Source: Gemmatimonadota bacterium
Lineage (GTDB): Bacteria > Gemmatimonadota > Gemmatimonadetes > Palauibacterales > KS3-K002
Direction: 5' to 3'
NCBI GenBank assembly: GCA_039586795.1
Contig: JBDHJS010000023.1
Span: forward strand, 1-53,617
Length of the DNA: 53,617 nucleotides
The notes beneath the pieces were generated by a model, which saw only the letters and a list, made by a program, of their open reading frames with translations, did no database searches and had not been told where the DNA came from. The position numbers and the translations under genes were made by a program. Positions 1 through 19,200 of the stretch are shown one piece after another (within the stretch, counting starts at the first letter, position 1; the number at the start of each line of letters is the position of its first letter).

Positions 1-288
1 GGTTTCGATGTAGCCGGCGAAGCCTCGTCGGGTATTGAAGCGATTGAGAAGTACAAGGAACTGAAGCCTGACCTGGTCACGATGGATATCGTGATGCCCG
101 ACATGGGTGGTATCGATGCTGTGCGGTCAATCATCGAAGAGGATCCCGACGCGAGAATCCTCATGTGCAGCGCGATGGGGCAGCAGGGGCTGGTGGTGGA
201 AGCGATACAGGCGGGGGCCCGCGACTTCGTGGTCAAACCCTTCCAGCCGTCTAGAGTGCTTGAAGCTGTCCAGCGCTTGATGGGATGA
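1..288 (+). CDS. cheY: Chemotaxis response regulator CheY (5' truncated by window edge)
   Basis: Frame 1 is open from base 1 (GFDVAGEASSGIEAIEKYKELKPDLVTMDIVMP...CSAMGQQ...FVVKPF). Single receiver domain with phospho-Asp (TMD), resembling Bacillus/Thermotoga CheY; ATGA overlap with cheA. Confidence 0.93.
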   Translation, partial: GFDVAGEASSGIEAIEKYKELKPDLVTMDIVMPDMGGIDAVRSIIEEDPDARILMCSAMGQQGLVVEAIQAGARDFVVKPFQPSRVLEAVQRLMG

Positions 289-1919
289 CTCAGCAGGAAA
301 AATACGCAGAGCTATTCGCAGCCGAGGCGCGCGAGCATCTTGCAGAGATCAGCCGCGCCTTCGTCGCGCTCGAGAGCGAGCCGGGCGACCGCGACTCGCT
401 AGACGCCATATTCCGTTCTGTACATACGATCAAGGGGATGGCGGCAGCGATGGGCTATGAGGTCGCATCCAGCCTGGCACATAACATCGAGTCCGCCCTG
501 GATGAGCTTCGCAGCGAGCGGCGACAAGCAGATGCTGATGTTGTCGACATGCTTCTGGAGAGCAGCGACAGGCTAGAAGAAGTCGTCATCGCCACCGTCG
601 AGGGAAAGAAGCCGCCAGATTCCAGCAAAGTGATCGAGCGACTGGTGTTGTGGCGGATCGCGGACGATAGTGCCACACAGCCGGCTCCCGAAGCAGAAAA
701 GACATCGGCACGCCGGAAGAAGACGCGCGATGCCAAAGCGGCGCCGCGGCCTGGACCAGAGCGCGCAACTCGGGCGGACACGCGTATACGCGTAGATATT
801 CGACGCCTTGACGCTCTGATGAACCTGATTGGCGAACTGGCGATCGTGCGGGGCCAGCTTCGCGCACTCGCGCAGCAATCCGGAATTGAGGTGTTGCAGG
901 ACACCGTCGATCGGGCGGGCAGCCTGATCCGCGAGATGCAGATGCACGTCGTCGAAAGCCGGATGGTTCCGGTATGGCAGATCTTCGATCGCTTTCCGCG
1001 GGTCGTTCGAGATGCCGCGCGCGCGCTTGGCAAAGAGATCGAGTTCGAGGTAACCGGCAAAGAGCTCGAGCTCGACCGTACTCTGCTCGATCGGATTAGC
1101 GATCCGTTGGTGCACCTGCTTCGCAACGCTGTGGACCATGGAATAGAACCACCAGCTGAGCGCAAGAAGGCGGGCAAGCCGCAGAGCGGTCGAATAGAAT
1201 TAGCGGCGCGCCGCGAGCGGTCACGCGTGGTCATAGAGGTACGGGATGACGGCCGCGGCATAGATCGCGAGGCCGTGATCAAGAAGGCGCGAGAAGCCGG
1301 GGACTCGGAGCACGAAGCCGAGCCGTCAGCTCAGGAGCTGTTTCGGATAATGGCGCGGCCGGGTTTTTCAACCGCGACGCGCGTGACGGAAGTCTCAGGC
1401 CGGGGCGTTGGGCTCGATGTCGTGCACACGTCGATAAGAGGATTGGGCGGCGCGGTTGATCTTCAGACGGAGAAGGGAGTGGGGACGACATTTCGTCTGG
1501 AACTCCCACTGACGCTGGCCATTCTACGCGCGCTGATCGTCGAGGTGGAAGGTCAGGTCTATGCGCTTCCCGCGACATTCACACGAGAAAGCTTCCAGAC
1601 CGAAGAATCAAACGTGGTGGAGGCCCACGGGCGCGAGTGGATAAGCTGGCGCGACCAGTTGCTGCCGCTCACGCGACTGCCGCGACTGTTCGCAAGTGAT
1701 AATGGAGACGGAGTCAACGGTAAGAACAATTCCGTCCACATAGTGGCCCTGGAGTTCGGCGGTGCTCATCTCGCCGTTTCCGTGGATCGCTTCGTGGGAG
1801 AAGAAGAGATAGTCGTAAAGTCATTTAACACACCGCTCGGCGCGGCTCCCGTTTTTTCCGGGGCGACCGTAAGGCCGGACGGGCGGCCAGCTCTGGTGCT
1901 GGATGTCGGCAGTTTCTAG
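285..1919 (+). CDS. cheA: Chemotaxis histidine kinase CheA (HPt, dimerisation, HATPase, CheW-like; no P2 domain)
   Basis: HPt FRSVHTIKGMA; IRVDIRRLDALMNLIGEL dimerisation start; HLLRNAVDHGIE, DDGRGID and GRGVGLDVV boxes; C-terminal P5. Confidence 0.96.
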   Translation: MTQQEKYAELFAAEAREHLAEISRAFVALESEPGDRDSLDAIFRSVHTIKGMAAAMGYEVASSLAHNIESALDELRSERRQADADVVDMLLESSDRLEEVVIATVEGKKPPDSSKVIERLVLWRIADDSATQPAPEAEKTSARRKKTRDAKAAPRPGPERATRADTRIRVDIRRLDALMNLIGELAIVRGQLRALAQQSGIEVLQDTVDRAGSLIREMQMHVVESRMVPVWQIFDRFPRVVRDAARALGKEIEFEVTGKELELDRTLLDRISDPLVHLLRNAVDHGIEPPAERKKAGKPQSGRIELAARRERSRVVIEVRDDGRGIDREAVIKKAREAGDSEHEAEPSAQELFRIMARPGFSTATRVTEVSGRGVGLDVVHTSIRGLGGAVDLQTEKGVGTTFRLELPLTLAILRALIVEVEGQVYALPATFTRESFQTEESNVVEAHGREWISWRDQLLPLTRLPRLFASDNGDGVNGKNNSVHIVALEFGGAHLAVSVDRFVGEEEIVVKSFNTPLGAAPVFSGATVRPDGRPALVLDVGSF

Positions 1920-1981
1920 TGCCGATCGAAAATAAGCCACGCGAGCATGGCAGCATGATCGAACTTCAGGCGGAAAGGCGA

Positions 1982-2602
1982 ATGAACGATTCACAGGAGC
2001 TCCGGGACTTAGAGCTTGATGCGCTTAAGGAGGTGGCCAACGTCGGTGCAGGTCACGCGGCGACAGCTTTGAGCCAGCTTACCAATCGCCGCATCATGAT
2101 CAACGTGCCAGAAGTCGAGCTTTGCTCGATTGAGGAAGCGGCATCCTCTGTTGGACAGGGGAATCGAGTGGTTGCTGCCGTGTTGATGCAGGTGCTGGGA
2201 GACCTGACGGGGCGTTGCCTGCTTCTGTTCGAGAAAGACGCGGCGATGAAGCTTGCTGATGTGTTGCTGAGCCGGGAGCCGGGCAGCACCAAGGTGTTCG
2301 GCGAGTTGGAGCAATCATCTGTGAAGGAGACCGCCAACATCCTGACGGGAGCGTACCTGAATGGCCTGTCCGATCTGCTGGGACTGATGCTCATCCCCTC
2401 GGTCCCTAGCTTAGCGGTCGATCTCGCCGGAGCCGTCCTGTCCACGACTTATTTGAACTTCGGCCATGATCGGAGCTTCGTGATCATCATGGACACGCGG
2501 TTCATGTTTGAACCGGATTCCGAGGTTATGACAGGCCATCTTGTCTTGTTGCCGGACTCATCAAGCCTGAGCGTCATCCTGAAGGCGGCCAGAGTCAAAT
2601 AG
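1982..2602 (+). CDS. cheC: CheC-family CheY-P phosphatase
   Basis: Two (D/S)xxxExxN sites: DALKEVAN and SSVKETAN. Start placed at ATG 1982 after GAAAGG; the ORF is open from 1919. Confidence 0.92.
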   Translation: MNDSQELRDLELDALKEVANVGAGHAATALSQLTNRRIMINVPEVELCSIEEAASSVGQGNRVVAAVLMQVLGDLTGRCLLLFEKDAAMKLADVLLSREPGSTKVFGELEQSSVKETANILTGAYLNGLSDLLGLMLIPSVPSLAVDLAGAVLSTTYLNFGHDRSFVIIMDTRFMFEPDSEVMTGHLVLLPDSSSLSVILKAARVK

Positions 2603-2608
2603 ACGTGT

Positions 2609-5329
2609 ATGGCTAGAACGGTCTACTCTGAGGGCGATCTTCTCGTTCTGCGGGCTCTTGCCAAGCGCATCGACCCGGGGGACGCCGGTGCGTTCAATAA
2701 TTTGGGGGTAGTCTACTATCAGAAAGCCTTGTTTGAGGATGCGATCGAGCAGTTTCGGCGGGCGCTGGCGATCGATCCGAAGATGGAGGTGGCGCGGCGC
2801 AACCTGGAGATCGCGTACCATCAAACCGGCTATTATGACCGCCAGATTGCTGAGCTGATCGGACGCCTACGCCAGAACGAAGATGACGAGGAAGCACGTC
2901 TGAAATTGGCGGAAGCGTATCTCCAGGTCGGCCGGGTGGACGAGGCGATCAGTCAGTATGAGACCCTGATCAAGTCGCGGCCCGGCGAGGTGCAGGTCCT
3001 CCTCAAGCTTGGCACGGCTGAGAAGAACCGTGGGGAACTGAAGAAGGCCATCGAGTGGTTTGAACGAGCGCGTGCCGTAGACCCGTCCCGGACGTTCGTC
3101 TACCTGCAGCTGGGCGAGATCCTCTACAACCAGGGGATGAACGAGGAAGCGATCGCTCACCTCCGGAAGGCGCTGAAGCTCAACCCCTCCATCGCGGAAG
3201 CGCACCACCTCCTCAGCTTCATCTACGGTGATATAGGCGATTCCGATCGCGCCGCAGAGCACGCGGGCAAGGCGGCGGAGTTGAATCCCGCGGCGGCAAA
3301 AGTGCAGACTAACCTATCGCTCGACCGGTACAGCTCGGCTCGCTACGTGGAGCTTACCGGTAACGTCCAGCCGACGCCCGCGGGGGATGGAGAACAAGCG
3401 TTTGCTCACTATAGCCTGGGCATAGCCTTCAGGGCGCGGGGGTTATACGAGGAAGCGCGGCGCGAATTCGAGAAGGGTCGAGAGGTAGGCGAAGATGAGA
3501 CGCTACTCGACCTGGCGGAAGCCGAACTGACCTTACTGGAAGGTGATGCTGAAGGCGCCCTGGCGCGCTACGACGAGTTGCTGGCTGCGCTACCGGATAG
3601 CGCCAAGGTTTGGAACGAGCGCGGTGTGGCGCTTCATCAGGTTGGCAGGTTGGACGAAGCGGAGGAGAGCTACAGGAGCGCGTTGAGCCTGGACACCGGT
3701 TATGCACTGGCTTGGAACAACGTCGGTGTGGTGAGCGCACATCGTGGCGACTCGGCGGCAGCGGAGGAAACGTTTCGGAAGGCACTTGATGCGCGAGAAG
3801 AACTCGACGATGCGCGGCTCAACTTGGGTTTGCTGTGGGTGAAGACCGAGCGGGCAAGCGAGAGTCTTCAACTCTACCGGAGAATGCTCCGCACGGATCC
3901 TCATCGGGCTGATGCGTGGACCGGACTGGGCTCAGCCCTGGTGTCGATGGGTCGTATCGAGGATGGACGTGATGCTTTCGCCAAGGCCGTTGAGGCGAAC
4001 CCGAACTTCCCGCCGGCGCGCTACAATCTGAGTTTCGCGCTGGCTCGGCTAGGCGACCACGAAGGGGCATTGCGGGAGACCAAGGCAGCCCTCGAGCTGG
4101 ATCCCTACTACACCTCGCCGCGCTTCCGACTGTCGATCGACCTGCAATACGAGGGCGGTGACATCTGGGCTCCCGAACTCGCGGCGCCGGAGCGTATCGA
4201 AGCGCGAGGCCCGGGCGTGCGTGACTTCGAGTTCAATGTTGATGAGCTGGAAGCGGTATTTCAGGAGCTGGATGCAGGCGACGCGGAAGAGGAACTCGCG
4301 CCGGCTGAGCCGCGCCCAATGGCGGAGGACCTGTTTGCCCTAGCCCGTGACTACCTGGCAAACGGGATGTATGACCGAGCGTTGGCGGAGGCGGTCCACG
4401 CGATGCGCGAGGGTGGAGACAATGCGGAGGGCTCGCTGATCGTAGGCGAGATATATCGAAATCGTGGGCTCTACGGTGAAGCACTCGAGCGATTTCAAGA
4501 AGCCAGAAGCGAGCGACCCAAAGACAGAATCGCGCTGGCGGGAGTCGCGAGGTGCCTGCTGCAGCTTGATCGAGCAGAGGATGCGCTGACCGCCGCGGAA
4601 GAGCTGCTACCGTTGGCGGGCGACGATGTAGACATGCTGCTCGTCATCGGCGAGGCGCTGACGCGGGCGGGCGAAGGTGCACGAGCGATCGACGTCCTTG
4701 ATGCGGCTGCGCGAGCGGCGCCGGCGGACGCCACCGTCCACCGACAGGTAGCGCGAGCGGCGTTGGCTGTCGGAAATCACAGGAGAGCCAAAGAGGCTTA
4801 CAGTCGGGCGATCGCCGAGGATCCGGATTTTGCAGCGGCACGCGTCGAACTCGGGCGGATTCTGATCGACGAGGGCTCGTACGGCGATGCGGAAGTCGAA
4901 ATCCGGCAGGCTCTGGAGCTGATGCCGACCTACGCCGAGGCGAATCTGGTGCTGGCAGACTTGATGGTACGTCAGGGTCGGCAGCGAGAAGCGATCAACT
5001 CGCTGGCCGACTTACTCGAGACGCAGCCATACAACCCGGAGGGGCTCGTTATGCTCGGCGAGGCGCTGGCTCGTGAAGGTCGGCGGCGGGACGCCTATCA
5101 CGCGTTGCAGAGGGCACAGCGCTTCGATCCAGAGCGAATCGATGTCCTGTTCCGTCTCGGCGAGCTTGCCGGTGAATCAGGACGCTATCGGGACGCGCTG
5201 CACTATTGGCGGCAGCTGATCGATGTGGCGCCGGAGAGCGAGTTGGCGGCACGTGCAAAAATACAGGCGCGGATGATACTGGGGTCGAGCTACGCGCTCG
5301 ACGGTGCGGTCTCAGGGAGTAGTGTCTGA
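2609..5329 (+). CDS. Large multi-TPR protein (906 aa), possible SgmX-like MglA scaffold
   Basis: Many TPR-type repeats (e.g. AFNNLGVVYYQKALFEDAIEQFRRALAIDP, VWNERGVALHQVGRLDEAEESYRSAL); acidic central linker; no signal peptide. Confidence 0.88.
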   Translation: MARTVYSEGDLLVLRALAKRIDPGDAGAFNNLGVVYYQKALFEDAIEQFRRALAIDPKMEVARRNLEIAYHQTGYYDRQIAELIGRLRQNEDDEEARLKLAEAYLQVGRVDEAISQYETLIKSRPGEVQVLLKLGTAEKNRGELKKAIEWFERARAVDPSRTFVYLQLGEILYNQGMNEEAIAHLRKALKLNPSIAEAHHLLSFIYGDIGDSDRAAEHAGKAAELNPAAAKVQTNLSLDRYSSARYVELTGNVQPTPAGDGEQAFAHYSLGIAFRARGLYEEARREFEKGREVGEDETLLDLAEAELTLLEGDAEGALARYDELLAALPDSAKVWNERGVALHQVGRLDEAEESYRSALSLDTGYALAWNNVGVVSAHRGDSAAAEETFRKALDAREELDDARLNLGLLWVKTERASESLQLYRRMLRTDPHRADAWTGLGSALVSMGRIEDGRDAFAKAVEANPNFPPARYNLSFALARLGDHEGALRETKAALELDPYYTSPRFRLSIDLQYEGGDIWAPELAAPERIEARGPGVRDFEFNVDELEAVFQELDAGDAEEELAPAEPRPMAEDLFALARDYLANGMYDRALAEAVHAMREGGDNAEGSLIVGEIYRNRGLYGEALERFQEARSERPKDRIALAGVARCLLQLDRAEDALTAAEELLPLAGDDVDMLLVIGEALTRAGEGARAIDVLDAAARAAPADATVHRQVARAALAVGNHRRAKEAYSRAIAEDPDFAAARVELGRILIDEGSYGDAEVEIRQALELMPTYAEANLVLADLMVRQGRQREAINSLADLLETQPYNPEGLVMLGEALAREGRRRDAYHALQRAQRFDPERIDVLFRLGELAGESGRYRDALHYWRQLIDVAPESELAARAKIQARMILGSSYALDGAVSGSSV

Positions 5330-6462
5330 TGCCTATCGAGGGATCGCTGCGCGAGTTTGCGCTTCACGACATCTTCCAGCTCCTTCACTTGTCGAGGAAG
5401 ACTGGTGACCTGGAGATCGTGCGCGAGCCGTCGGGTACTCGTGGCCTGGTGAAGTTCTCCGGCGGCGCCGTGGTTGGCGCGGAAGTCGATGAGGAGACGC
5501 CGCGACTTGGGTACATACTCCTGAATGCTGGGAAGATCACCGAGGCCGACCTTCGCGAAGCCGACAAGCTGCGTGCGCAAGATCCATCTCGTAGTTGGTC
5601 GAGCGTTTTTGGCTCGCTTGCGGCAATGGAACAGGATGACCTGGATCAGTACATGAAGTTCCAAATCGAGGAATTGGTGTACGAGATCCTTGATTGGCGT
5701 GACGGCCGGTTTTCGTTCGGCGAGCGCGCTGTGGAGGAGACGGAAAGCGTCACCTGGATTCCCGTCGAGTCTCTGCTCATGGAAGGTGCGCGCCGTGCGG
5801 ACGAACTATCGCAACTCTCAACGGCAATCGAGAGTCCTCAGGCCGTGCCCAGGCTCTCCGAGCGTGCGGCGTCTGAGACTTCGCTGCTGGACCTCGCTCC
5901 AGAAGAATGGGAAGTCCTCGGCCGCATCGATGGTGTGAATGATTTAAGGTCGATAGCGACCACGCTGGGTCGGAGCGAGTTCGATGTCAGCAAAGTCGTA
6001 TCACGGTTGGCGGAGCACGGTTTGATCGAGATCGTCTCACAGGATGGATCCGGGACCCAGCCTCCGCACGAGGTGATGTTGGATCGGATCGCAGACTTGA
6101 TCGAGCACGACGAACTGGCCGAAGCTCGTGCTAAGCTGCGTAGAGTTCTGGAGAACTTCCCGGACGAGCCGCGGGCGCACTATCTAGCAGCCCGGTCACT
6201 AGAGCGCGAGGGCCGATATGGTCCGGCGGCGGCGAGCTACGAGGCGACGGTGAATCTGGATCCGCTGGCGGCAGATGCCCGGCAGCGTCTTGGGCTGGTG
6301 AAGCTCAGACTAGGAGATATCGATGGGGCGTCCCGAGCCTGGACGGCCTATCTGCGCATGGCCGCCGACACGCCAGAACGTCGACGTGTCGAGCGAGCGA
6401 TGACGGCTCTTCATGAACTTGAACTAATACTCAACGAGTTCGATGGCAGGGAACACCCGTAG
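5329..6462 (+). CDS. DUF4388 (PATAN-like) domain protein with C-terminal TPRs
   Basis: N-terminal EGSLREFALHDIFQLLHLSRKTGDL and WRDGRFSF...ESLLMEGARRADE are typical of DUF4388; followed by a winged-helix-like segment and TPRs; TGATG overlap with the previous gene. Confidence 0.85.
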   Translation: MPIEGSLREFALHDIFQLLHLSRKTGDLEIVREPSGTRGLVKFSGGAVVGAEVDEETPRLGYILLNAGKITEADLREADKLRAQDPSRSWSSVFGSLAAMEQDDLDQYMKFQIEELVYEILDWRDGRFSFGERAVEETESVTWIPVESLLMEGARRADELSQLSTAIESPQAVPRLSERAASETSLLDLAPEEWEVLGRIDGVNDLRSIATTLGRSEFDVSKVVSRLAEHGLIEIVSQDGSGTQPPHEVMLDRIADLIEHDELAEARAKLRRVLENFPDEPRAHYLAARSLEREGRYGPAAASYEATVNLDPLAADARQRLGLVKLRLGDIDGASRAWTAYLRMAADTPERRRVERAMTALHELELILNEFDGREHP

Positions 6463-7249
6463 ATCGCTTCAGGAATTGAGCGACGAGGTCGCGACCAACC
6501 CGAACTCCACGGCGTTCGTGGAGTTAGCCGGTCTGTACAGGGAGCGTGGTGATCTCGATCGCGCGATGCGGTTGTGTCTGCGGGGGCTGCAGCGTCACCC
6601 GACGCATGTCGAAGCACATTTCGAACTCGGGAGGATATACGAAGCGCGGGGCGAGCGAGAGCTCGCCCTCGATGAGTGGGAGATGGTACAGCAGCTGGCG
6701 CCGGACCACCTGTCGTCACGCCTGGCCTCGGTCGAGCTGTACTTGGAGGAGGGGCGCAACGTCGAGGCCGAGTCGGAGCTGAAGGAGGCGGAACGACTTG
6801 CGCCGGACCATTCGTCTGTCACCGCGCTCCGCAAACTCGTCGACACGTTGCCGAAGGAGCCCGAAAGCGAACCGGAGCCTGCGGAACCGGGGGGCGTCTT
6901 TGACGCCATCGAGGCCGACCCAGGCACGCTGGGGGTCATGCTTGTCGATTCGGACGGTGGGTTCATCGAGGGCCATGCGCCGGGCAGCGAAAACGCATCC
7001 GAGGCAGCCGTGGGCGTGAACTTGATAAGCGCGCGTGCCGAGGCTGAGCGCGTGGCGTCGTACCTGGAGCTCGGTGACCTGAAGGGCATGGTTGTCGAGG
7101 GCTCCGGGGCGCGACTTACGATATCTCCGGTCGGCCGCGACGTCATCATCGTGGCGACGAAGAGTGACCTGCCGGCTGGTCAGGCTGCGCGTCTGGCTCA
7201 GCGGGCGTGGGCCGCTGCGGAGGGATACCTGAGCGACATGGGACGATGA
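6443..7249 (+). CDS. TPR + Roadblock/LC7 (MglB-like) fusion protein
   Basis: N-terminal TPRs (AFVELAGLYRERGDLDRA; AHFELGRIYEARGE), Pro/Glu linker, then a Roadblock pattern (PGTLGVMLVDSDG...LELGDLKGMVVEGSGARLTISPVG). Confidence 0.8.
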   Translation: MAGNTRRSLQELSDEVATNPNSTAFVELAGLYRERGDLDRAMRLCLRGLQRHPTHVEAHFELGRIYEARGERELALDEWEMVQQLAPDHLSSRLASVELYLEEGRNVEAESELKEAERLAPDHSSVTALRKLVDTLPKEPESEPEPAEPGGVFDAIEADPGTLGVMLVDSDGGFIEGHAPGSENASEAAVGVNLISARAEAERVASYLELGDLKGMVVEGSGARLTISPVGRDVIIVATKSDLPAGQAARLAQRAWAAAEGYLSDMGR

Positions 7250-7614
7250 AGCCCGACGCTTATAAGAGCCTGATTGCCGACATGATGGGCGTGCCGGGCG
7301 TACGTGGAGCGCTGGTAGTGGCGGTACGCGATGGACTGGTCGTCGACGGACGAGTGCATGTCGGCGTGAAGGGTGACGCAATCGCCGCGCTGGCGGCTTC
7401 TCTGTTCCGCCGGGCTTGCCAGGCGACCGGCAATGGAGATGGGAGCTTGCGGTTTGTAGAGGTCGAGGCGGAACACGGTCGCATGATCATAGCGGGGTTG
7501 GAAGAGTTGGCCTTGTTGGCGGTGTTGGAGAACCGCGCGAACGCTGGACAAGCTCGCCTTGCTGTTCGGCGCGCTGCTGAGACGCTGGCTACGATGGAAA
7601 AGCATAGTGAATGA
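7246..7614 (+). CDS. Roadblock/LC7 domain protein (MglB/MglC-like)
   Basis: VPGVRGALVVAVRDGLVV...AIAALAASLF...VEVEAEHGRMII...NAGQARLAVRRAA. ATG 7246 overlaps the upstream TGA (ATGA). Confidence 0.85.
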   Translation: MKPDAYKSLIADMMGVPGVRGALVVAVRDGLVVDGRVHVGVKGDAIAALAASLFRRACQATGNGDGSLRFVEVEAEHGRMIIAGLEELALLAVLENRANAGQARLAVRRAAETLATMEKHSE

Positions 7615-8098
7615 GCGACTGAACCTGCGGCAGATTCAGGAAGCCTTCTCTACACCGCTCGTCGATTTTGTGAACGAGTCGGGCGTGGCGCTGGCTGTCT
7701 TGATCAACCGGAGTGGACAGGTTCTCGCTCAGCACGGCTTCGATCGCGTCTTTGACCTGGTGGGCGTGGCTTCATTGGCAGCCGGAATCAACGCCTCCAG
7801 TCGAGCGCTGGCGATGCAGCTCGGCGAGGAGCAGTTCGAGCATCTTCATCACGCTGGATCGAGAAGGCAGTTGTTTCTCGGCCACTTTGATTCAGCTGCG
7901 GGCCAACTGATGCTCGTTGCGGTTTTCGATGGCAATTCATCTATCGGCTTGGTTCGGCTCTTCTTCGAAGAGTTTGTCGGCCAGATCCGTCGACTACCCT
8001 CGATGGATGTATCGAGGAAGTCGGTCAGCGCAGGGGATTTCGAGACTGAGCTCGAGACCAGTCTCGATCGGTTCTTCAAAGGCTTAATAGGCAGCTGA
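7607..8098 (+). CDS. mglB: MglB-type GTPase-activating Roadblock protein
   Basis: LINRSGQVLA, ASLAAG..A..ALA.QLGE.QF, VAVFDGNSSIGLVRL and an acidic C-terminal helix (ELETSLDRFF) match Myxococcus/Thermus MglB; directly upstream of mglA; GTG 7607 start inferred. Confidence 0.85.
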   Translation: MNERLNLRQIQEAFSTPLVDFVNESGVALAVLINRSGQVLAQHGFDRVFDLVGVASLAAGINASSRALAMQLGEEQFEHLHHAGSRRQLFLGHFDSAAGQLMLVAVFDGNSSIGLVRLFFEEFVGQIRRLPSMDVSRKSVSAGDFETELETSLDRFFKGLIGS

Positions 8099-8100
8099 TT

Positions 8101-8742
8101 ATGTCGCTAGTGAACTACGCGACTCGCGAGATTACGTGCAAGATCGTCTACTACGGGCCAGGTCGGTCCGGCAAGACGACCAACTTGCAGTACATACACA
8201 GCCGCGTGCCGTGGGATCGAAAAGGCGAGATGGTCTCGTTGGCTACCGATACTGACCGCACGCTGTTCTTCGATTTCCTGCCTCTGGAACTGGGGCACAT
8301 TTCCGGCTTCACGACTCGGTTCCAGCTTTACACAGTCCCCGGTCAAGTCTACTACAACGCAACCCGGAAACTGGTACTCCAGGGAGCTGACGGAATCGTC
8401 TTCGTGGCAGATAGTCAGAAGTCTCAGGTCGACGCTTCTTTGGAATCATTCCGCAACCTGCACGAGAACCTGTTGGAACATGGCATAGATATCCGCCATA
8501 TCCCCGTCGTCATCCAGTACAACAAGAGGGATCTCCCCAACGTGTTCAGTCTCGAGGAGCTGGAGGAGGAGATCAACTTCCGTAACGTTCCCAGCTTCCC
8601 GGCCTCCGCGCTACTGGGTGAGGGGGTGTTCGACACACTCAGATCGGCCAGCGAGGGTGTCTTGAGGAAACTGGCCAGCAAGTTGGAGATCCCTGCGGAT
8701 GTTACGGAGGACGAGGAGGCAGAGCGTGACAGTCTCCGTTGA
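8101..8742 (+). CDS. mglA: MglA small Ras-like GTPase
   Basis: REITCKIVYYGPGRSGKTTNL (G1), DRTLFFDFLPL (intrinsic Arg finger), LYTVPGQVYY (catalytic Gln), NKRD (G4). Confidence 0.96.
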   Translation: MSLVNYATREITCKIVYYGPGRSGKTTNLQYIHSRVPWDRKGEMVSLATDTDRTLFFDFLPLELGHISGFTTRFQLYTVPGQVYYNATRKLVLQGADGIVFVADSQKSQVDASLESFRNLHENLLEHGIDIRHIPVVIQYNKRDLPNVFSLEELEEEINFRNVPSFPASALLGEGVFDTLRSASEGVLRKLASKLEIPADVTEDEEAERDSLR

Positions 8743-9904
8743 TCCGAACCTGACCTTCGAATCGTTCGTAGTAGGCCCGGAGAACCGGCTTGCCTGGGAG
8801 GCGGCGCGTACGGCAGCCGAGTCACCTGGCTCTGCGTACAACCCGCTCTTCATCTACGGGGACACCGGACTCGGAAAGACTCATCTGCTGGTCGCCATCG
8901 CCAACCGGGCCGGCGAGCTTAACGCGGAGTTCAAGGTCGCGTACACGCCGCTAGAGCAGCTGCTAACGCAGGCGAAGGACGAGGATGATGGAGGGGCAGC
9001 GTTCCGGGAGGCGGACCTTCTCCTGGTTGATGATCTCCAATTTCTCGGACCCAAGAGCGAGAGCCAGCACGTCCTCTTCCATCTTCTGGATCACCTGCTC
9101 ATGGCCGGCAAGCAGGTAGCGCTTGCATGCGATAGGCCGCCTCTCGAACTGGGGCAACTGGACGACCGACTTCTCTCACGTTTCAGCGGTGGCCTGGTAG
9201 TGGATGTCGGGAAGCCAAACCTGGAGACGAGGCGATCGATCCTCGAGCTGCGGTTGACTGCAATCGGGGCGTCGCTCAGATCGGATGTCATCGATGCTGT
9301 CGCGCGATTGGCGATAGAAAACGTTCGCCAACTCAAGGGAGCTTTGAACCGCGTACTTGCCGCTCAGAAGGCGGAAAACCGCGATGTCTCGTCAGATGAG
9401 ATCGACCGGTTGCTAGCCGATGTTGTTGCGGATCCAGACATGCCGTGGCTCAGCGACGAAGCGAATCAAACGGGCGCCGAGTTCAGGGATTTTCTGGACG
9501 ATGTATCGGTCGCTGTGGAAGAGGCGCTGGGTGCACCCAAATGGCGTGAGGACTTGGCCAGAGCGATCCTCAAGTGGGAAGCGGAGGGCTATTCGACCAA
9601 GCGTCTGGATGCGTTCCTCGACCGTGAAGAGATAGTCGATTCTGAACAAGTCGTCGCGGCCTACGAACGAGATATAGAGACACTTCAGTCGATAGGCGAG
9701 GAGGTAAATGGCCTGGGCGCAAAGCTACCGGATAAAAGCGTGCTGCATGACCCGGACCGCCTGGACGAGCTGCGAGATCTCCTGTCCGAAATACGTCGCG
9801 AGAACGTGACTGTAGATGAGTTCTTCAACGATTCCGAGAAGGTCATCTGGGACTGGCCGGTGACCGAGGAGAAACTGATCGAGAGCTGGGACGATGGCAA
9901 TTAA
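8726..9904 (+). CDS. DnaA/Hda-family AAA+ ATPase lacking DnaA domains I, II and IV, with an unrecognised C-terminal domain
   Basis: TFESFVVGPEN, YNPLFIYGDTGLGKTHLL (Walker A), LLVDDLQFL (Walker B), CDRPP, RLLSRF, NVRQLKGAL. No domain IV HTH (no GGRDHTTV-like motif). GTG 8726 preceded by GAGGAGG. Confidence 0.88.
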   Translation: MTVSVDPNLTFESFVVGPENRLAWEAARTAAESPGSAYNPLFIYGDTGLGKTHLLVAIANRAGELNAEFKVAYTPLEQLLTQAKDEDDGGAAFREADLLLVDDLQFLGPKSESQHVLFHLLDHLLMAGKQVALACDRPPLELGQLDDRLLSRFSGGLVVDVGKPNLETRRSILELRLTAIGASLRSDVIDAVARLAIENVRQLKGALNRVLAAQKAENRDVSSDEIDRLLADVVADPDMPWLSDEANQTGAEFRDFLDDVSVAVEEALGAPKWREDLARAILKWEAEGYSTKRLDAFLDREEIVDSEQVVAAYERDIETLQSIGEEVNGLGAKLPDKSVLHDPDRLDELRDLLSEIRRENVTVDEFFNDSEKVIWDWPVTEEKLIESWDDGN

Positions 9905-11522
9905 GGGTAGCCTAAAGGAAGCCAGCCTCACCGATGTCCTCCAGCTGCTGGCGATGGGGGGCAAGACGGGCTGTCTGTCGGTCACGGACCGACAGAGCTT
10001 CGGCTACATCTATTTCGACGAAGGTCGAATTGTCTACTCCTCGCTGCTCAATCGACGGGATCGGCTTGGCGACATTCTCGTGAGAGAGGGAGCCGTGACG
10101 AGGGAGCAACTTGATCAGGCCCTCGAGGAGCAAAGCAATACGAGAGACGGCCGGCGGATAGGTGAGATACTGTGCGATCGGGAATCGCTGAGCCCGAAGA
10201 CGCTTAAGAAGTACGTCCGCCACCAGATCGAGGAGGCGGTGTACCATCTGTTCACCTGGAGTCAGGGGACCTTCTACTTCGAGCCAAACCAGCGGCCGGA
10301 GAGAGAAGAAATCCTGGTCTCAATAGATCCTGAAAGCCTGCTATTGGAGGGTGCGCGGCGCGTCGATGAATGGAGCCAGATTGAAAAGAAGATACAATCG
10401 CTTGACGTCATATTCTCGCTCGATGCAGACAAGTCAGTCGCGCTCTCTTCATTAAAGCTAACCCCGGAGCAGGAAACGGTCCTGGAATATCTGGATGGTA
10501 AACACTCCGGTTGGGCGATCATCGACGAGTCAGCGCTTGGCGAGTTCGAGGTAGGTAAGGCGCTGTTCGGGCTTGCGTCCGCCGGTTTGATCAGGAAGAC
10601 GGGGCGACAAGAGCGGCAGCGCCCGAAGATGGAGACGAAGGCGCGAGTCGACGAACACCGGAATCTGGGCGTTGCGTTCTATCGGACGGGGATGTTCGAT
10701 GAGGCCGTACGCGAACTCAAACAGGTCATCGAGCTCGAACCGAGCGCGCTGGATGCGGAGTTCTACCTTGGGCTCATAGAGTTACGCAGTGGAAAGCTGT
10801 CGGTGGCCGAGTCGATTTTCCGCGCAATCCTGGAGAAAGGTGGTTCGAGGGCCGGCGTGTTCAACAACCTCGCCCACGTTTTGGCGGGTCAGGGAAGGAC
10901 GTTGGAGGCGCTGGCTCTTCTGGAGGAGGGGATAAAGAGGTCGGAGAACAGTCCGAAGCTTCACCTTTCGAAGGCCCTTCTCGAGCTGAAGACAGGCGAC
11001 CCGGCAGCTGCAAAAACCACCCTCGAAGACTATGAGAAACTCGAGGACGCCAGGTTAACGGCGCTGTACTATTCGACGAAGGCCTTGGCCCAGGCGATGT
11101 CGGCAAACATGGACGCTGCCATCATCGCGCTCGAGGAAGGTCTGGAAAGCCATCCGAACTCGGCCGCGCTCGCGAACAACGCCGGAGTGATTTGGGAGCG
11201 GAAAGGAGACGAGGACCGAGCACGGCAGTTGTACGAGAGGGCATTCGATAGCGAGCCGGACATCCCGCAGGTTTCGAAGAACGTGGCAGACCTCCTGTAT
11301 CGCGAGGGAAACTACGATGAGGCGGCGGAGATCTATGAACGCGCTATTCGCGCCGATGCCGACCTGGGTGACGATATCTATGCCAAGTTGGGCAATGTGT
11401 ACTACAAGAGCAGGGCTCGGGAGAAGGCGATAGAGATGTGGTTGAGAGCGTTGGAGCTCAACCCAGAAAACGAAGTCGTGCGCACTAACCTGGAATTTGT
11501 GAAAGACGTCAACGGTGGGTAG
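9894..11522 (+). CDS. DUF4388 + MshEN-like motif + TPR protein
   Basis: MAIKGSLKEASLTDVLQLLAMGGKTGCL (DUF4388); RLGDILVREGAVTREQLDQALEEQ (MshEN consensus); SLLLEGARRVDEW; several C-terminal TPRs. Confidence 0.86.
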   Translation: MAIKGSLKEASLTDVLQLLAMGGKTGCLSVTDRQSFGYIYFDEGRIVYSSLLNRRDRLGDILVREGAVTREQLDQALEEQSNTRDGRRIGEILCDRESLSPKTLKKYVRHQIEEAVYHLFTWSQGTFYFEPNQRPEREEILVSIDPESLLLEGARRVDEWSQIEKKIQSLDVIFSLDADKSVALSSLKLTPEQETVLEYLDGKHSGWAIIDESALGEFEVGKALFGLASAGLIRKTGRQERQRPKMETKARVDEHRNLGVAFYRTGMFDEAVRELKQVIELEPSALDAEFYLGLIELRSGKLSVAESIFRAILEKGGSRAGVFNNLAHVLAGQGRTLEALALLEEGIKRSENSPKLHLSKALLELKTGDPAAAKTTLEDYEKLEDARLTALYYSTKALAQAMSANMDAAIIALEEGLESHPNSAALANNAGVIWERKGDEDRARQLYERAFDSEPDIPQVSKNVADLLYREGNYDEAAEIYERAIRADADLGDDIYAKLGNVYYKSRAREKAIEMWLRALELNPENEVVRTNLEFVKDVNGG

Positions 11523-12318
11523 CGACGATCGCGCCTATTCCTCGCTGTTCTCACGGCTAGAGCGGGAACGCGGATTCAAGGGAGCCGCGTATCGCCAGAA
11601 GTGTTTGCGCCGCCGCGTTGCTGTGCGTATGCGGGCCCGGGGTATGGCCGATGTTGATGAATACGCGGCGTTGCTCGACGCCGACCCTACCGAGTATGAC
11701 AGGCTTCTCTGTGTTTTGACCATCAATGTCAGCAAGTTCTTCCGCAATCCAGAGACTTGGGAGGTGATCCAGAAGGACGTTCTCCCTGAGCTTCTTCAGC
11801 GATCCAGCTCGCTGCTGATGTGGAGCGCGGGGTCGGCCGCTGGTGAAGAGGCCTACAGCCTGGCGATAATGACCTGGGACTGGCTGACGCGCCACCGACG
11901 TGACATATCGAATGGCCTCCGCATCATCGGGACCGACATTGACAACCAGAGCCTGGAGGCTGCCCGAGCGGCCGAGTACTCGGAGGCTGCTCTGGATGAG
12001 ACACCAGACGACGTCAAGCGCCGCTGGTTCAAGCTTGATGATGTGTGGCGATTGAAGGAGCCAATTCCTCAACTTGTGGAGTTTCGGCAGCGCGACATCC
12101 TTTCCGGTCGACCTGATTTTGACGCGGACCTGATACTCTGCCGCAATCTTCTGATCTACCTAGACAGGGAAGCACAACGGCGGGTGTTTCAGGTATTCAT
12201 GGATACACTGCGGACGGACGGCTATCTGGTGTTGGGACGCGTAGAGATGCTTCCGTCGGTGTTCAAGAAGAACTTTGAGGTTGTGAACGCGCGAGAGCGT
12301 GTCTACAAGAAGAAATGA
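11515..12318 (+). CDS. cheR: Chemotaxis protein-glutamate methyltransferase CheR
   Basis: LTINVSKFFRNP, WSAGSAAGEEAYSLA, IIGTDID, LILCRNLLIY, GYLVLG. Confidence 0.93.
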   Translation: MGSDDRAYSSLFSRLERERGFKGAAYRQKCLRRRVAVRMRARGMADVDEYAALLDADPTEYDRLLCVLTINVSKFFRNPETWEVIQKDVLPELLQRSSSLLMWSAGSAAGEEAYSLAIMTWDWLTRHRRDISNGLRIIGTDIDNQSLEAARAAEYSEAALDETPDDVKRRWFKLDDVWRLKEPIPQLVEFRQRDILSGRPDFDADLILCRNLLIYLDREAQRRVFQVFMDTLRTDGYLVLGRVEMLPSVFKKNFEVVNARERVYKKK

Positions 12319-12794
12319 AGTATTACGTCTCGCTGGGTGAGCGCCGTGTTGGCAGGGCGGAGGGCATGTTTGCGGTTCTCGGCCTGGGGTCGTGCGTCGT
12401 GATCGTGCTCTATGATCCCGCGAGCTCAGTGGGTGGAATGTCGCATGTGCTTCTTCCGGATCCTTCGTACAACGACAACGCCGCTCGTCGTTGGAGATAT
12501 GCAACCACGGCGGTTCCAGGGCTCCTGGACGAAGTTGTGTCGGCTGGAGGGTCAAAGGCGAACATCACGGCGCGGCTAGTGGGCGGCGCGAGCATGTTCG
12601 GTGAGCTGCTTCCAAAGGGAGAGCCGAATATCGGAGAGCGAAATGTCGAGGCCGCTCGATCGGCGCTGAAGGAAGCGGGCATACCTCTAGTAGGTGAGGA
12701 CGTAGGCGGCGACTACGGTCGATCAGTGTATTTCAAGTTGAGCGACGGCCGACTCCGGGTTAAAGCTCATGGAAGGGAACATGTCGAAGTCTGA
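12315..12794 (+). CDS. cheD: Chemoreceptor glutamine deamidase CheD
   Basis: LGLGSCV (catalytic Cys), GGMSHVLLP (His), LVGGASMF, IGERN, EDVGGDYGRSV. Confidence 0.93.
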   Translation: MKYYVSLGERRVGRAEGMFAVLGLGSCVVIVLYDPASSVGGMSHVLLPDPSYNDNAARRWRYATTAVPGLLDEVVSAGGSKANITARLVGGASMFGELLPKGEPNIGERNVEAARSALKEAGIPLVGEDVGGDYGRSVYFKLSDGRLRVKAHGREHVEV

Positions 12795-13869
12795 GCCCGT
12801 TGGCCAAGCGAGGTCGGTGCTCGTTGTCGATGACAGCGTGTTCATGCGGCGCATGATCTCCGACATGATCGGACGTTTCCCCGGATTCGAGGTCGTGGGG
12901 ACAGCGGCAGACGGAGAGGAAGCGCTGCGGCTGATCGAAGCCCATGATCCAGCTGTCGTCACCCTTGACATCGAAATGCCTCGTCTCGATGGATTTGGCG
13001 TGTTAGAGCGGGTGATGTCATCGACGCCGAAGCCTATCGTGGTTCTCTCCGCATACACCGGCGAAGGAAGCGACGCGACATTGCGAGCGCTGGAACTTGG
13101 TGCCGTCGAGTTTGTAGCCAAGCCTTCCGGGCCGATTTCCTTCGATCTTGCTCGTGTGGAAGGCAGACTCTACGAAGCGCTACAGGCGGCGATTGTCGCG
13201 GACCTGGACGCACTGCTGAAAGAGCGCCGCGGGGGGACGCCGCGGTCTGTAGCTGCAAGCGACACCGGTGAGTTAAAAGTGGTAGCCATCGCTGCGTCCA
13301 CCGGAGGCCCCCGCGCTCTGGCGTTTATCTTGAGTGCTCTTCCCACCAACCTTGGAGCGGCCGTCCTCATCGTCCAACACATGCCACCCGGCTTCACTTC
13401 GACGCTGGCATCGCGTCTCGATGAGATTTGCCCGCTACCGGTGCATGAAGCGAGCGGCGGCGAACCGATTTTGGCGAACCACGTATGGCTAGCACCGGGT
13501 GACTTCCACATGAGAGTCCGGCGAATCGATGGCGAGGTGCGTCTGTCGTTGGATCAGCAGGAGCCGATGTGCGGGACGCGGCCAGCGGCCGACGCATTGT
13601 TCCCGACGGTGGCAGCTGTATTCGGTCAGGGTTCGGTAGGGGTGGTCCTGACGGGGATGGGACGCGATGGCGCAGATGGGCTTGCCGCGATTCGAGCTGC
13701 CAGCGGTCGCACTATCGCTCAGGACGAAGAGAGCAGCGTCGTCTTTGGCATGCCGGGCAAAGCCGTGGAACAGGGTGCGGCGGAACAGGTAGTCGCGCTC
13801 GACAGGATTCCGGAGGCGATCGTCGAATCGCTGAATTCTATCTCATCGCAGTCGCGGAGCGCACGGTGA
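12781..13869 (+). CDS. cheB: Chemotaxis methylesterase CheB (REC + esterase)
   Basis: REC VLVVDDS/TLDIEMP; catalytic triad IAASTGGP, VQHMP, LTGMGRDG. ATG 12781 follows GGAAGGG (ORF open from 12769). Confidence 0.96.
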   Translation: MSKSEPVGQARSVLVVDDSVFMRRMISDMIGRFPGFEVVGTAADGEEALRLIEAHDPAVVTLDIEMPRLDGFGVLERVMSSTPKPIVVLSAYTGEGSDATLRALELGAVEFVAKPSGPISFDLARVEGRLYEALQAAIVADLDALLKERRGGTPRSVAASDTGELKVVAIAASTGGPRALAFILSALPTNLGAAVLIVQHMPPGFTSTLASRLDEICPLPVHEASGGEPILANHVWLAPGDFHMRVRRIDGEVRLSLDQQEPMCGTRPAADALFPTVAAVFGQGSVGVVLTGMGRDGADGLAAIRAASGRTIAQDEESSVVFGMPGKAVEQGAAEQVVALDRIPEAIVESLNSISSQSRSAR

Positions 13870-14864
13870 AGGACCTGGTGACGTTCCGCGTTGGTGGTTC
13901 GAGATACGCGCTACCTGCCGAACTGGTGACAGAGGTTGTTGAGATCGAACCCGTAGCGCACCAGGTGCTGGCCGAGCAGGACAGCCAGGCGCCTGGACTG
14001 ACGCAGATCAGAGGTCGATGGGTTCCGGTGATCGAGTTGGCCGGAACGCTCCCCGATTGTGAGCCCCTGCGTTCCGCTGAAGAGGGCACGGTGCTTTTGG
14101 TACTGGGCCGTGGCGCGAACCAGCTGGGGCTGAAGATCGAGGAGCTAGGCGATGTAGTTCCGGCTGGCGAGGGTCGAACGCCGACGGGGCCCAGCTCCGA
14201 GCTGTTCATCGAGATCAACGGGGACTTGATACGCTACATCGACCCGGCGCTTCTCATCGATTCGCAGGCGAGTTTGCTGGTTGATCAAGGGGGAATGATG
14301 GAGGAGCACCAGACGGTACCCGATGCCAAGAAGGTCGTTGCCTTCAAGGTGTGCGCCGACGAATTCGCGGTAGATGTCATGAGCGTACGCGAGGTTTTGA
14401 AGGTCAGCGACGTGCGCCCGGTCCCCAAGGCGCCGGATTTTGTCGAAGGCGTAGTGGGCGTGAGAGATGCTGTGATTCCTGTCATCGATATGCGCAAGCG
14501 TTTTAGCCTTCCCGAGCGCGATGCCGGGGTGGAAGGGCGGCTCCTGGTTGTGACCACTGGTGATGGCCAGGTCGCTCTTGTGGTTGACGACGTACCCGGG
14601 GTCGTCGAGCTTCCTCTTGACGAGCTGAGTCCAGCTCCCGACTTCTTCAAGGGGCTGGCCGGTCGATACCTGGAGGCGATCGCGCAGTCCGGAGAGAGTC
14701 TTATTATACTTCTGAACCTGGATGAGATTCTTTCCTCGAAGGAGAAGATCGCGCTCAAGAAGATGATCAATGGAGGAAAAGGGTCGACCAGGAAGGCCAA
14801 GCCGGCTTCGGCAAAGCCACGGAAGAAGCGGACCACGCGGCGCACAAAGAAGGACCCAGGTTGA
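13866..14864 (+). CDS. cheW: Tandem CheW-CheW protein with Lys/Arg-rich tail
   Basis: First, degenerate CheW: LVTFRVGGSRYAL...GLTQIRGRWVPVIEL. Second, canonical CheW: VVAFKVCADEFAVDV..VREV..VPKAPDFVEGVV.VRD.VIPVIDMRKRF. GTG 13866 overlaps the cheB TGA. Confidence 0.88.
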   Translation: MKDLVTFRVGGSRYALPAELVTEVVEIEPVAHQVLAEQDSQAPGLTQIRGRWVPVIELAGTLPDCEPLRSAEEGTVLLVLGRGANQLGLKIEELGDVVPAGEGRTPTGPSSELFIEINGDLIRYIDPALLIDSQASLLVDQGGMMEEHQTVPDAKKVVAFKVCADEFAVDVMSVREVLKVSDVRPVPKAPDFVEGVVGVRDAVIPVIDMRKRFSLPERDAGVEGRLLVVTTGDGQVALVVDDVPGVVELPLDELSPAPDFFKGLAGRYLEAIAQSGESLIILLNLDEILSSKEKIALKKMINGGKGSTRKAKPASAKPRKKRTTRRTKKDPG

Positions 14865-15056: not shown

Positions 15057-15872
15057 TTGGCCGAAACGCTCGCCCAAGCTGTAGAGCCGCCTCCAAGGAT
15101 GCCCGGGCTGCCTGCCGATATTCTGAATGGTGACCCGATCACCATTAACCTACCCCCGGATCGCCAGACCTTCGATTCACTAGCGCCAGGCGCCCCGGAC
15201 TGGAGCGCCGGCCTGGCGTTCCCTGAAGGAGACCAGATCGTACTGCCGACGTTCAACTACCGGTCAGGCGCTCAGTTGGTCTCCGTACTTCGTCATGAAT
15301 TGGCTCATGTTGCGGTAGGTCGCTATTTGGGCTCCATAGCGCCCCGCTGGTTTCACGAGGGCTACGCCCAGCTCGCCGCGGGCAGCTGGCGGGCCGAAAG
15401 CGCTTGGGAACTGCGTGTGGCCATCCTCCTTGGCCGAGTTCCTTCGTTGGAGAACCTCAGCCTTGACTTCCGGCGCAGCAGAATCGATGCCGAGCATTCC
15501 TATCTACTGTCTTATACCGCCGTCGAGTACATGTATCGGCTCGGCGGATCCGGCGGCTTTCAGGCGCTGCTGGAAAACTGGCGGTCGGGCGGTGACCTGG
15601 ACCGTGCGCTGCGAGGCACCTACGGAATCACTCTGTCACGGTTCGAGAGATTATGGCGGCAGGATGTGGCTGGTCGCTTTGGGTGGCTTCTGGTGCTTGC
15701 CCAGACGGCGATCTACTGGACGGCGTTGACGATCCTATTGCTGGTTATGGGGTACTGGAAGAAAAGGAGGAACCGAAGGAGATTGCGGGCCCTGGAGGAG
15801 AGGGAGAGAGAGGCGAGCGAGTCACAAGCGGCCGAAGGGGCAGAAGGTGTGACAGGCTACAATTCTGAATAA
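15057..15872 (+). CDS. Zinc metallopeptidase (peptidase MA-like), C-terminally membrane anchored; true start probably further upstream
   Basis: VLRHELAH zinc motif, PRWFHEGYA, C-terminal TM helix followed by a basic stretch. The frame is open upstream to 14865 and includes a signal-peptide-like segment. Confidence 0.8.
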   Translation: MAETLAQAVEPPPRMPGLPADILNGDPITINLPPDRQTFDSLAPGAPDWSAGLAFPEGDQIVLPTFNYRSGAQLVSVLRHELAHVAVGRYLGSIAPRWFHEGYAQLAAGSWRAESAWELRVAILLGRVPSLENLSLDFRRSRIDAEHSYLLSYTAVEYMYRLGGSGGFQALLENWRSGGDLDRALRGTYGITLSRFERLWRQDVAGRFGWLLVLAQTAIYWTALTILLLVMGYWKKRRNRRRLRALEEREREASESQAAEGAEGVTGYNSE

Positions 15873-16257: not shown

Positions 16258-16331
16258 GGGCGCGTAGCTCAGCTGGCAAGAGCGCTGCCCTTACAAGGCA
16301 GAGGCCCCTGGTTCGAGTCCAGGCGCGCCCA
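16258..16331 (+). tRNA. tRNA-Val (anticodon TAC), CCA not encoded
   Basis: Acceptor GGGCGCG/CGCGCCC-A; D arm TAGCTCAGCTGG..AGAGC; anticodon stem CTGCC-CTTACAA-GGCAG; T loop GGTTCGAGTCC. Confidence 0.97.
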
Positions 16332-18466: not shown

Positions 18467-18901
18467 ATGACCGGCTTCTTGGGAAGCTTTCTTCATCAGC
18501 TGGATGAGAAGGGCCGACTCGCCCTGCCGGCCGCGTTCAGACGCAGCGCTGGGGAGGAAGAGCGGTTCGTTCTGATTCACGCCCAAGAGCCAGCCCTGTT
18601 CCTGTATCCGGCCCGAGCCTGGGCGAGCGTCGAGGAGCAGCTGATGGATCTGCTGCGACGACAGCCGGAATCCCGCGGTCTGGTTCTCAGTCTCACGGCG
18701 AACGCGTTGGAGACGATACCGGACAAGCAGGGCCGGATCCTGATACCGGAGCGGCTTCAGGAAGCGGCCCAGCTGGACAGCGAGGCTCTGATCGTTGGCG
18801 CGCTGGAGAAGATAGAAATCTGGAATCCTGGTGTGTTCGACAGCACGACACGGGATGCCAAGCCTGAACTGGAGAAGTTTGTTCGTCAAATAATCGTCTG
18901 A
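18467..18901 (+). CDS. mraZ: Transcriptional regulator MraZ
   Basis: Two SpoVT/AbrB repeats: LDEKGRLALPA and PDKQGRILIP; IEIWN. Confidence 0.96.
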   Translation: MTGFLGSFLHQLDEKGRLALPAAFRRSAGEEERFVLIHAQEPALFLYPARAWASVEEQLMDLLRRQPESRGLVLSLTANALETIPDKQGRILIPERLQEAAQLDSEALIVGALEKIEIWNPGVFDSTTRDAKPELEKFVRQIIV

Positions 18902-18916
18902 CAGGAGAACGGGGTG

Positions 18917-19198: not shown

Positions 19199-19200
19199 AC

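Follow-up and report, generated by a model that had tools for sequence, protein, structure and literature searches.

The stretch of DNA analysed here (the window) comprises the 53,617 nucleotides of contig JBDHJS010000023.1 from a Gemmatimonadota bacterium (assembly GCA_039586795.1). The gene under study, at 8726..9904 on the forward strand, encodes a 392-residue protein in which a DnaA-type AAA+ module is followed by an unrelated C-terminal region. It is likely not a replication protein but an adaptor of a chemosensory and cell-polarity system. We base this reading on its relatives, which carry two, one or no AAA+ modules while nearly always keeping two C-terminal motifs, an acidic helix and a tryptophan-rich tail, next to a gene for a PATAN-TPR protein. 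Helix, tail and neighbouring gene are the most constant elements of the family, and the ATPase has been lost in some lineages. The explanation that we favour, with just over even confidence, is that the protein would dock on the PATAN-TPR protein through helix and tail and be clustered by an ATP-dependent oligomer of the DnaA type, probably to act on type IV pili.

According to this explanation, the acidic helix and the tail would bind the TPR half of the neighbouring protein. ATP-dependent head-to-tail assembly, as in DnaA, would multiply the docking sites and thus cluster the partner, and in orthologues with two AAA+ modules the second would supply the Arg finger in cis. The cluster may then couple the Che/MglA signal and cyclic di-GMP (c-di-GMP) to the type IV pilus machinery. 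The window protein is expected to bind no origins and to have no essential role in replication.

A DnaA-type AAA+ module without a DNA-binding domain

The gene opens with a GTG codon directly preceded by GAGGAGG. An in-frame ATG is also found at 8699, and the orthologues start at the GTG position instead. An earlier note, made from the letters of the window, had described the product as a DnaA-type ATPase that begins at domain III and has lost its DNA-binding domain, and both the translation of the open reading frame and Pfam agree with this. Bac_DnaA matches residues 6-160 (E 2.6e-46), while neither Bac_DnaA_C (PF08299, domain IV) nor DnaA_N gives a Pfam match in the protein, and the AAA+ match begins at residue 4-6, so that the N-terminal domains I and II are absent. 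The AAA+ module (residues 1-235; 8726..9430, forward strand) contains every motif that the note had quoted: Walker A (GDTGLGKT), Walker B (VDD), sensor I (CDRPP), box VII with the Arg finger (RLLSRF) and sensor II (NVRQLKGAL). These are retained in all 12 loci of the window lineage, and F106, R152, L157, G205 and R209 are invariant across 74 homologues. The protein scores 243 bits with the DnaA model TIGR00362 (cut-off 344) and 90.5 bits with the Hda model TIGR03420 (cut-off 194.8).

The AlphaFold2 model of the protein has a mean predicted local distance difference test score (pLDDT) of 72 and a predicted template modelling score of 0.48, with residues 234-269 poorly predicted. Its AAA+ part superposes on domain III of Bacillus subtilis DnaA with a template modelling score of 0.91 over the target and a root-mean-square deviation (rmsd) of 1.8, and a separate fold search against the same domain gave Z 28.2 and rmsd 1.6 over 229 aligned residues.

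In B. subtilis DnaA, two residues binding single-stranded DNA (ssDNA) and eight residues of the filament interface are essential, according to PMC6669920. By that list, seven of the eight interface residues are kept in the window protein (R206, F218, H231, R264, L269, G317 and R321, in B. subtilis numbering), and R202 is absent. Since seven of eight are kept, formation of an ATP-dependent oligomer by the window protein is plausible, and like DnaA it probably assembles on ATP. The ssDNA-binding face, again by that list, is partly lost. The position of I190 falls in the initiator-specific motif (ISM), which is about six residues shorter than in DnaA, and is absent from the window protein; K222 corresponds to K110, a position occupied by His in 9 of the 12 lineage loci. 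The short, acidic ISM that the earlier note had pointed out is thus present in the window protein, but it is limited to the window lineage and is not a trait of the family: in most orthologues the ISM has its full length and a second AAA+ module is present.

The two modules of these longer orthologues differ in what they have kept. Among 55 of them, the first modules retain the nucleotide motifs (52-55 of 55) and the sensors and have lost the ssDNA face, with Glu at the position of R245 in 50. All second modules have the Arg finger, yet only 26 have sensor I and 36 have sensor II, and several are without the lid or the sensors. They also keep the DnaA ISM residues V211 (as I/V, 52/55), R227 (54/55) and R245 (51/55). 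This pattern of kept residues fits a head-to-tail pair in which the second module would complete the site of the first; the window protein, with its one module, would have to pair between copies.

The C-terminal region: helix, helical domain and conserved tail in place of domain IV

Residues 236-392 form a stretch of 157 residues that is predicted to be helical and strongly acidic (43 D/E vs 17 K/R), in line with the earlier description, and no domain IV match was found in this region. It is laid out in three parts. An acidic amphipathic helix (residues 251-267; 9476..9526, forward strand) has the pattern EF..FL.DV...V. A helical domain (residues 271-358; 9536..9799) corresponds to one copy of a repeat of ~95 residues and belongs to no Pfam family. 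Finally, a conserved Trp-rich tail (residues 365-388; 9818..9889), with the pattern F..E.K..W.WP....R.IEE, is likely a docking peptide.

The helix, the helical domain and the tail are under purifying selection. Ratios of non-synonymous to synonymous substitution rates (dN/dS) against seven orthologues of the lineage were 0.07-0.17 in the AAA+ module; the helical part gave 0.08-0.22, with one saturated pair, and the tail 0.10-0.28. These values are rough because dS mostly exceeds 1. Four closer pairs of two-module orthologues gave 0.02-0.14. A pseudogene or chance reading frame was rejected: 87 proteins were retrieved with just the C-terminal 168 residues, and the protein shows invariant residues and purifying selection. 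In one RNA library, a single 374-nt contig was identical to 9550-9923, and it possibly represents DNA. The named relatives belong to the Gemmatimonadota, with the orthologue of Ca. Kutchimonas denitrificans at 73% identity.

Relatives with two, one or no ATPase modules

We compared 98 orthologous loci, some of which were picked as exceptions, so their proportions are not a census. Two AAA+ modules were found in 58 (L063 included), where they flank the helical domain, one in 23 and none in 15; the two others are cut by contig ends. Sixteen loci have the layout of the window protein: the 12 of the window lineage and, in addition, L021, L135, L136 and L143. One module without the helical domain is seen in seven, namely G234 and six loci from the distant classes f11/f12. 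Five loci have the helical domain without an ATPase, and in ten only a mini-gene of about 60 codons is left, encoding helix and tail. In single assemblies, the gene of L020, L035, L045 and L148 is frameshifted or split, possibly through sequencing errors.

The mini-genes lie between mglA (or cheC) and the PATAN-TPR gene, for example at L085:7900-8147, L088:6900-7084 and L140:4697-4900, and are short enough for gene callers to miss. Six loci that could have been complete gene losses were rejected as such, the mini-gene being present beside a shortened partner gene. The acidic helix is kept in 10 of the 10 mini-genes. They arose in at least two independent events according to rpoB trees, in which a single clade was rejected for the first six (approximately unbiased test, p-AU 1.7e-43), and the mini-gene genome G111 is sister to G081, which retains the ATPase and a full partner. 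Between the mini-genes of G069 and G071, seven codons differ synonymously and none non-synonymously, and the mini-gene thus looks to be under selection. In these two genomes it still stands beside the PATAN-TPR gene, though mglA, mglB and the other TPR genes are gone from the operon.

In an even sample of 146 Gemmatimonadaceae genomes, the helical-domain profile matched 128 and the profile of the partner's TPR part 138. The 18 without the helical domain comprise ten with a mini-gene, G234, one contig edge and six that also have no partner match. Across a phylum sample of 151 genomes, the tail profile, which misses the divergent tails of f11/f12, matched 101, including 69 of 73 in f3 and 26 of 31 in f4; it matched none of seven in the sister family f2, none of 11 in f10 and only one of 16 in f6. 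These tallies include the unpublished genomes G054, G094, G156 and G168, which underlie no other claim made here. Six distant-class genomes have a related Trp/acidic tail at the end of the gene, followed by a TPR-only homologue, and no mglA.

The losses of the ATPase bear on its place in the protein. The earlier note had framed the protein as an ATP-dependent oligomer, but the constant element of the family is not the ATPase, because 15 loci have lost it and yet keep C-terminal parts. It could even be a decaying accessory, with the adaptor motifs alone being of importance and the AAA+ part serving as a passive spacer or as a dimeriser without a switch. The 15 loci with no module, the 23 with just one and the second modules without lid or sensors all point in this direction. 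We nevertheless consider it unlikely, given the intact nucleotide motifs of the whole window lineage and of nearly all first modules, the low dN/dS of the AAA+ part against the seven lineage orthologues, and the fact that just 10 of the 146 evenly sampled Gemmatimonadaceae genomes were found reduced to the mini form.

In three Gemmatimonadaceae genomes, the helix and the helical domain are found on an unrelated protein (L146:4363-6360, L145:2235-3815 and L147:6298-8169), with the tail also present in L146. The N-terminus of the host protein weakly matches the Fe-hydrogenase large-subunit domain PF02906. The C-terminal module can move without the ATPase.

The PATAN-TPR protein is the constant neighbour

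The gene overlaps its neighbours on both sides, as had been noted earlier: the 3' end of mglA (8101..8742), encoding the small GTPase, overlaps its start by 17 nt, and the start of the downstream DUF4388 (PATAN)-TPR gene (9894..11522) overlaps its end by 11 nt. The downstream product, which we infer to be the partner, passes the NF053729 model for the MshE-type c-di-GMP-binding motif (54.7 bits, cut-off 38). All 98 loci have as their next downstream gene one for a PATAN-TPR protein or, among the distant classes, for a TPR-only homologue; it was through this gene that some of the loci were found. By comparison, mglA is beside the gene in 80, absent in 15 and at contig edges in three.

A direct partnership with MglA/MglB, as an effector or as co-factor of a guanine nucleotide exchange factor or GTPase-activating protein, would agree with the 17-nt overlap and with those 80 loci. 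It is quite unlikely, however, given that the 15 loci without adjacent mglA retain the TPR neighbour and that five genomes (G058, G076, G121, G138 and G140) have mglA while neither the DnaA-derived gene nor the PATAN-TPR gene was found in them. The coupling to mglA that the earlier note had proposed is thus better placed with the PATAN-TPR gene, because 15 of the 98 loci have no mglA next to the gene.

The partner varies together with the adaptor. Partners of all ten mini-genes are without about the last two TPR repeats, and most also without the MshE-type insert, whereas the partner has 537-587 residues in 62 ATPase-bearing loci. The partner at L060 was flagged as short in its TPR part. Binding of the tail to the last two TPR repeats was rejected, as the mini-genes keep the tail beside partners without them; since the mini-gene persists beside the shortened partner, these repeats are not needed to retain the tail. 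Over 77 pairs, among which kin are not independent, the divergence of the tail follows that of two partner segments, residues 443-493 and 511-542 (partial rho 0.46-0.52), and covariation gives no support to binding of the first TPR repeat (rho 0.05-0.13). In Synechocystis, PATAN domains bind the pilus motor, according to a preprint (bioRxiv 10.1101/2021.06.11.447907). In the window genome, two genes of the PilT family were found and two chemoreceptor genes scored over the family cut-off; flagellin gave no match.

Several observations weigh against an adaptor that docks through helix and tail and acts on pili. That the two genes are adjacent and retained together would be explained by translational coupling just as well as by a physical complex. 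The EE at the end of the tail can serve as the ribosome-binding site of the neighbour (GAGGAG there), so that only the W/P/K/R positions of the tail argue for a role in the protein. A further covariation peak lies at partner residues 1-51 (rho 0.38-0.39), which are absent from the distant TPR-only partners, and covariation does not, for this reason, pin the docking site down. In the five ATPase-free loci that keep the helical domain, the tail is degraded and the helix weak, and the distant single-domain forms have no clear acidic helix. One very close pair, L032/L034, gave a dN/dS of 0.42 for the AAA+ part. Finally, PilT genes are found in 66 of 70 genomes and do not show the output, because they are present with or without the operon.

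Comparison with DnaA, Hda and other known systems

The window genome, which is 97.8% complete, has one other DnaA-like gene, a full-length dnaA followed by dnaN on contig C68, and its only domain IV match (PF08299) lies at C68:71196-71402. The gene under study is therefore not the only dnaA, and the canonical pair whose presence elsewhere the earlier note had anticipated does exist. Its AAA+ module is 39% identical to the DnaA of its own genome over 272 columns, and the family forms a clade apart from DnaA (support 100/99). Within the tree of ATPase modules, A1+A2 has support 76/44 and A1+A2 with the Gemmatimonadota DnaA 79/92; two quick trees disagree on the position of the f12 single-domain proteins.

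By feature tests, the window protein is neither DnaA nor Hda. It has the AAA+ fold of DnaA (PF00308, TIGR00362; B. subtilis 8bv3/8btg), with ~40% identity, and retains every nucleotide motif as well as most residues of the filament interface. It differs in missing domains I, II and IV and the I190 equivalent, in its shortened ISM and in having the new C-terminal helix, helical domain and tail; nor is it beside dnaN, as had been noted before. Hda (TIGR03420) resembles it in that its DnaA-like AAA+ module stands alone, has an Arg finger and is not joined to a domain IV. E. coli Hda, however, has a clamp-binding motif ahead of the AAA+ module, a segment that the window protein does not have, as the earlier note had also remarked, and Arg in place of the Walker A lysine that the window protein retains. 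The window protein, moreover, has the 157-residue extension, lies in a signalling operon and is closer to DnaA than to Hda. The initiator-clade AAA+ modules of IstB and DnaC/DnaI (Z 16-18) similarly act as ATP-switched assembly factors for a partner protein, but they work in DNA transactions, whereas the window protein is much nearer to DnaA and its context is signalling.

Co-assembly with the true DnaA through a trans Arg finger, as in Hda, had been proposed as a link between the polarity switch and the cell cycle; a filament cap would be another form of it. The identity to the genome's own DnaA, the seven of eight interface residues, the DnaA ISM residues of the second modules and the position of the operon just upstream of mraZ-rsmH-ftsI are compatible with it. 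No positive evidence for the link was obtained, and it is weakened by the 15 loci that lost the ATPase and by the failure to find the gene in f2 (0/7), f10 (0/11) and most of f6 (1/16). The clamp-binding motif is missing, the Hda score is far under the cut-off, and the retained core of helix and tail has no counterpart in DnaA. We regard the link to the true DnaA as very unlikely, and as less likely than the adaptor.

The gene order matches that of the Group 1 MglA/MglB loci with PATAN genes described by Wuichet and Sogaard-Andersen. The gene is encoded with a Group 1 mglA and Roadblock genes, as components of MglA/MglB modules are. The supplementary table of PMC4316618 gives Gemmatimonas aurantiaca GAU_1409 as PATAN>MglA>-PATAN>, with no gene named between mglA and the second PATAN gene, and 'DnaA' is absent from its main text and the three supplementary files searched. 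In Myxococcus xanthus, a chemosensory pathway acts with the MglA/MglB switch in the Frz-MglA/MglB-RomR module, as in the window locus, but mglA is encoded away from its partners, according to the same paper (PMC4316618). The window genome has one mglA by motif scan, and a second mglB-mglA pair lies outside the operon in many Gemmatimonadota genomes, including L092-L095. To our knowledge, the M. xanthus module includes no DnaA-type ATPase. The literature searched, in which subscription journals are mostly outside coverage, yielded no paper naming the gene, and PMC10782961 gave no matches to the topic. The DnaA-derived family is real and conserved, and apparently undescribed.

In sum, the repurposed DnaA paralogue in a signalling and polarity operon that the earlier note had proposed stands, and the ATP-dependent oligomer is plausible. 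The outcomes that the note had named as speaking against it (a domain IV-like helix-turn-helix, the gene as sole dnaA, orthologues unlinked or without purifying selection) were not observed: the orthologues are syntenic and under purifying selection.

The helical domain is shared with giant repeat proteins

Folded alone, the helical domain gave a confident helical model (pLDDT 83). Its best VIA match (Z 5.9, rmsd 4.5, 79 aligned) is at the level of generic helical bundles. Searches for relatives of the domain gave nothing in Pfam below E 0.098, in PDB sequences below E 0.09, with Foldseek at E <=0.001 or in the Atlas, which does not show a new fold. A profile search of 1.84 billion proteins, on the other hand, returned 491 at E <=0.001, with giant proteins carrying many copies of a ~95-residue repeat at the top. 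Named members and cluster-mates come from Thermoplasmata/Thermoplasmatota, Bathyarchaeia, Thermoproteota and Wallbacteria, with one Methylacidiphilaceae record.

In the reverse direction, a profile of 154 repeats searched against the 42,244 open reading frames of the window genome found the window gene alone (E 1.1e-11; next 0.28). With this profile, 60 of the 62 real domains scored above 20 bits and none of the 62 reversed or 310 shuffled ones did, and HHalign gave a probability of 98.5%; the 154 repeats had initially been selected by the window-domain profile, so the test is not fully independent. Judged by these profiles, the helical domain is homologous to the repeat of the giant Thermoplasmata-type proteins.

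Of 27 giant proteins examined, 15 have, behind their two to eight repeats, a DnaA AAA+ module that lacks domain IV, and zinc ribbons are often present. An archaeal origin of these proteins is probable, based on one Thermoplasmata cluster-mate and an Atlas lead under 0.9. In the tree, their ATPases group separately from the modules of the Gemmatimonadota; a clade joining the two was not recovered, but it was not rejected either (p-AU 0.18). Two metagenome scans found no genome context for the archaeal-type proteins, and PATAN is only a weak match to their N-terminal domain (HHalign probability 6%).

The archaeal-type ATPases retain the I190 equivalent and mostly that of K222, as do the second modules of the Gemmatimonadota proteins. 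This would be compatible with a family that binds single-stranded nucleic acid via the ISM, such as DNA imported by pili, the window protein being a form that lost the activity. We consider it highly improbable: the window protein has neither a second module nor the I190 position, and both the His at the K222 position in most lineage loci and the Glu at the R245 position in most first modules run counter to it.

Several forms of the giant proteins were seen. P0211, P0216, P0223, P0224, P0250, P0356 and P0382 have ~1100-1400 residues and are probably from Thermoplasmata. Most have an N-terminal globular domain; five to eight repeat copies and a DnaA AAA+ module lacking domain IV are present, and in many cases zinc ribbons too. 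The repeat is also fused to DUF835 and KaiC-like domains. P0362-P0365 (~1880 residues) carry an MshE-type domain for c-di-GMP binding at the N-terminus and a long helical rod between two DnaA AAA+ modules, another DnaA ATPase tied to a c-di-GMP motif.

The operon and its surroundings

All genes of the operon are co-directional on the forward strand. It begins with cheA, cheC, a gene for a 906-residue TPR protein and the first PATAN-TPR gene (285..6462), followed by three Roadblock-domain genes (TPR-Roadblock, Roadblock and mglB-like; 6443..8098). After mglA, the DnaA-derived gene and the second PATAN-TPR gene come cheR, cheD, cheB and cheW (11515..14864), the last with two CheW domains in the open reading frame as read. 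A Peptidase_MA_2 gene (15057-15872) closes the operon in most loci, and one is also found near the DnaA-derived gene in two distant-class loci (L066, L090). Further 3' on the same strand lie a tRNA-Val gene (16258-16331) and then the first genes of the cell-division cluster (mraZ, rsmH and a penicillin-binding protein/ftsI, within 18467-22453).

Implications

The database label 'chromosomal replication initiator' for these proteins is probably a misannotation. The initiator-clade ATPases nearest in the fold search (DnaA, Hda, DnaC, IstB and Orc1/Cdc6) all act on DNA, and a DnaA paralogue that is present across a phylum and encoded in a chemosensory-polarity operon would add cell signalling to the uses of the DnaA switch. 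The shared repeat ties this unstudied bacterial family to unstudied archaeal proteins that bear DnaA modules. Tentatively, the filament-forming ATPase of DnaA may have been recruited more than once, in bacteria as well as in archaea, to serve as an add-on ATP switch in signalling scaffolds built on one shared helical repeat: in the Gemmatimonadota it would cluster the c-di-GMP-binding PATAN-TPR output protein of a chemosensory-MglA system, and in the Thermoplasmata-type proteins it would cap a rod of two to eight repeats. The natural series of two, one and no ATPase modules, down to the mini-gene, shows which motifs are essential and is predicted to yield a small docking peptide. If the recruitment reading is true, these proteins would represent an undescribed class of non-replicative DnaA switches.

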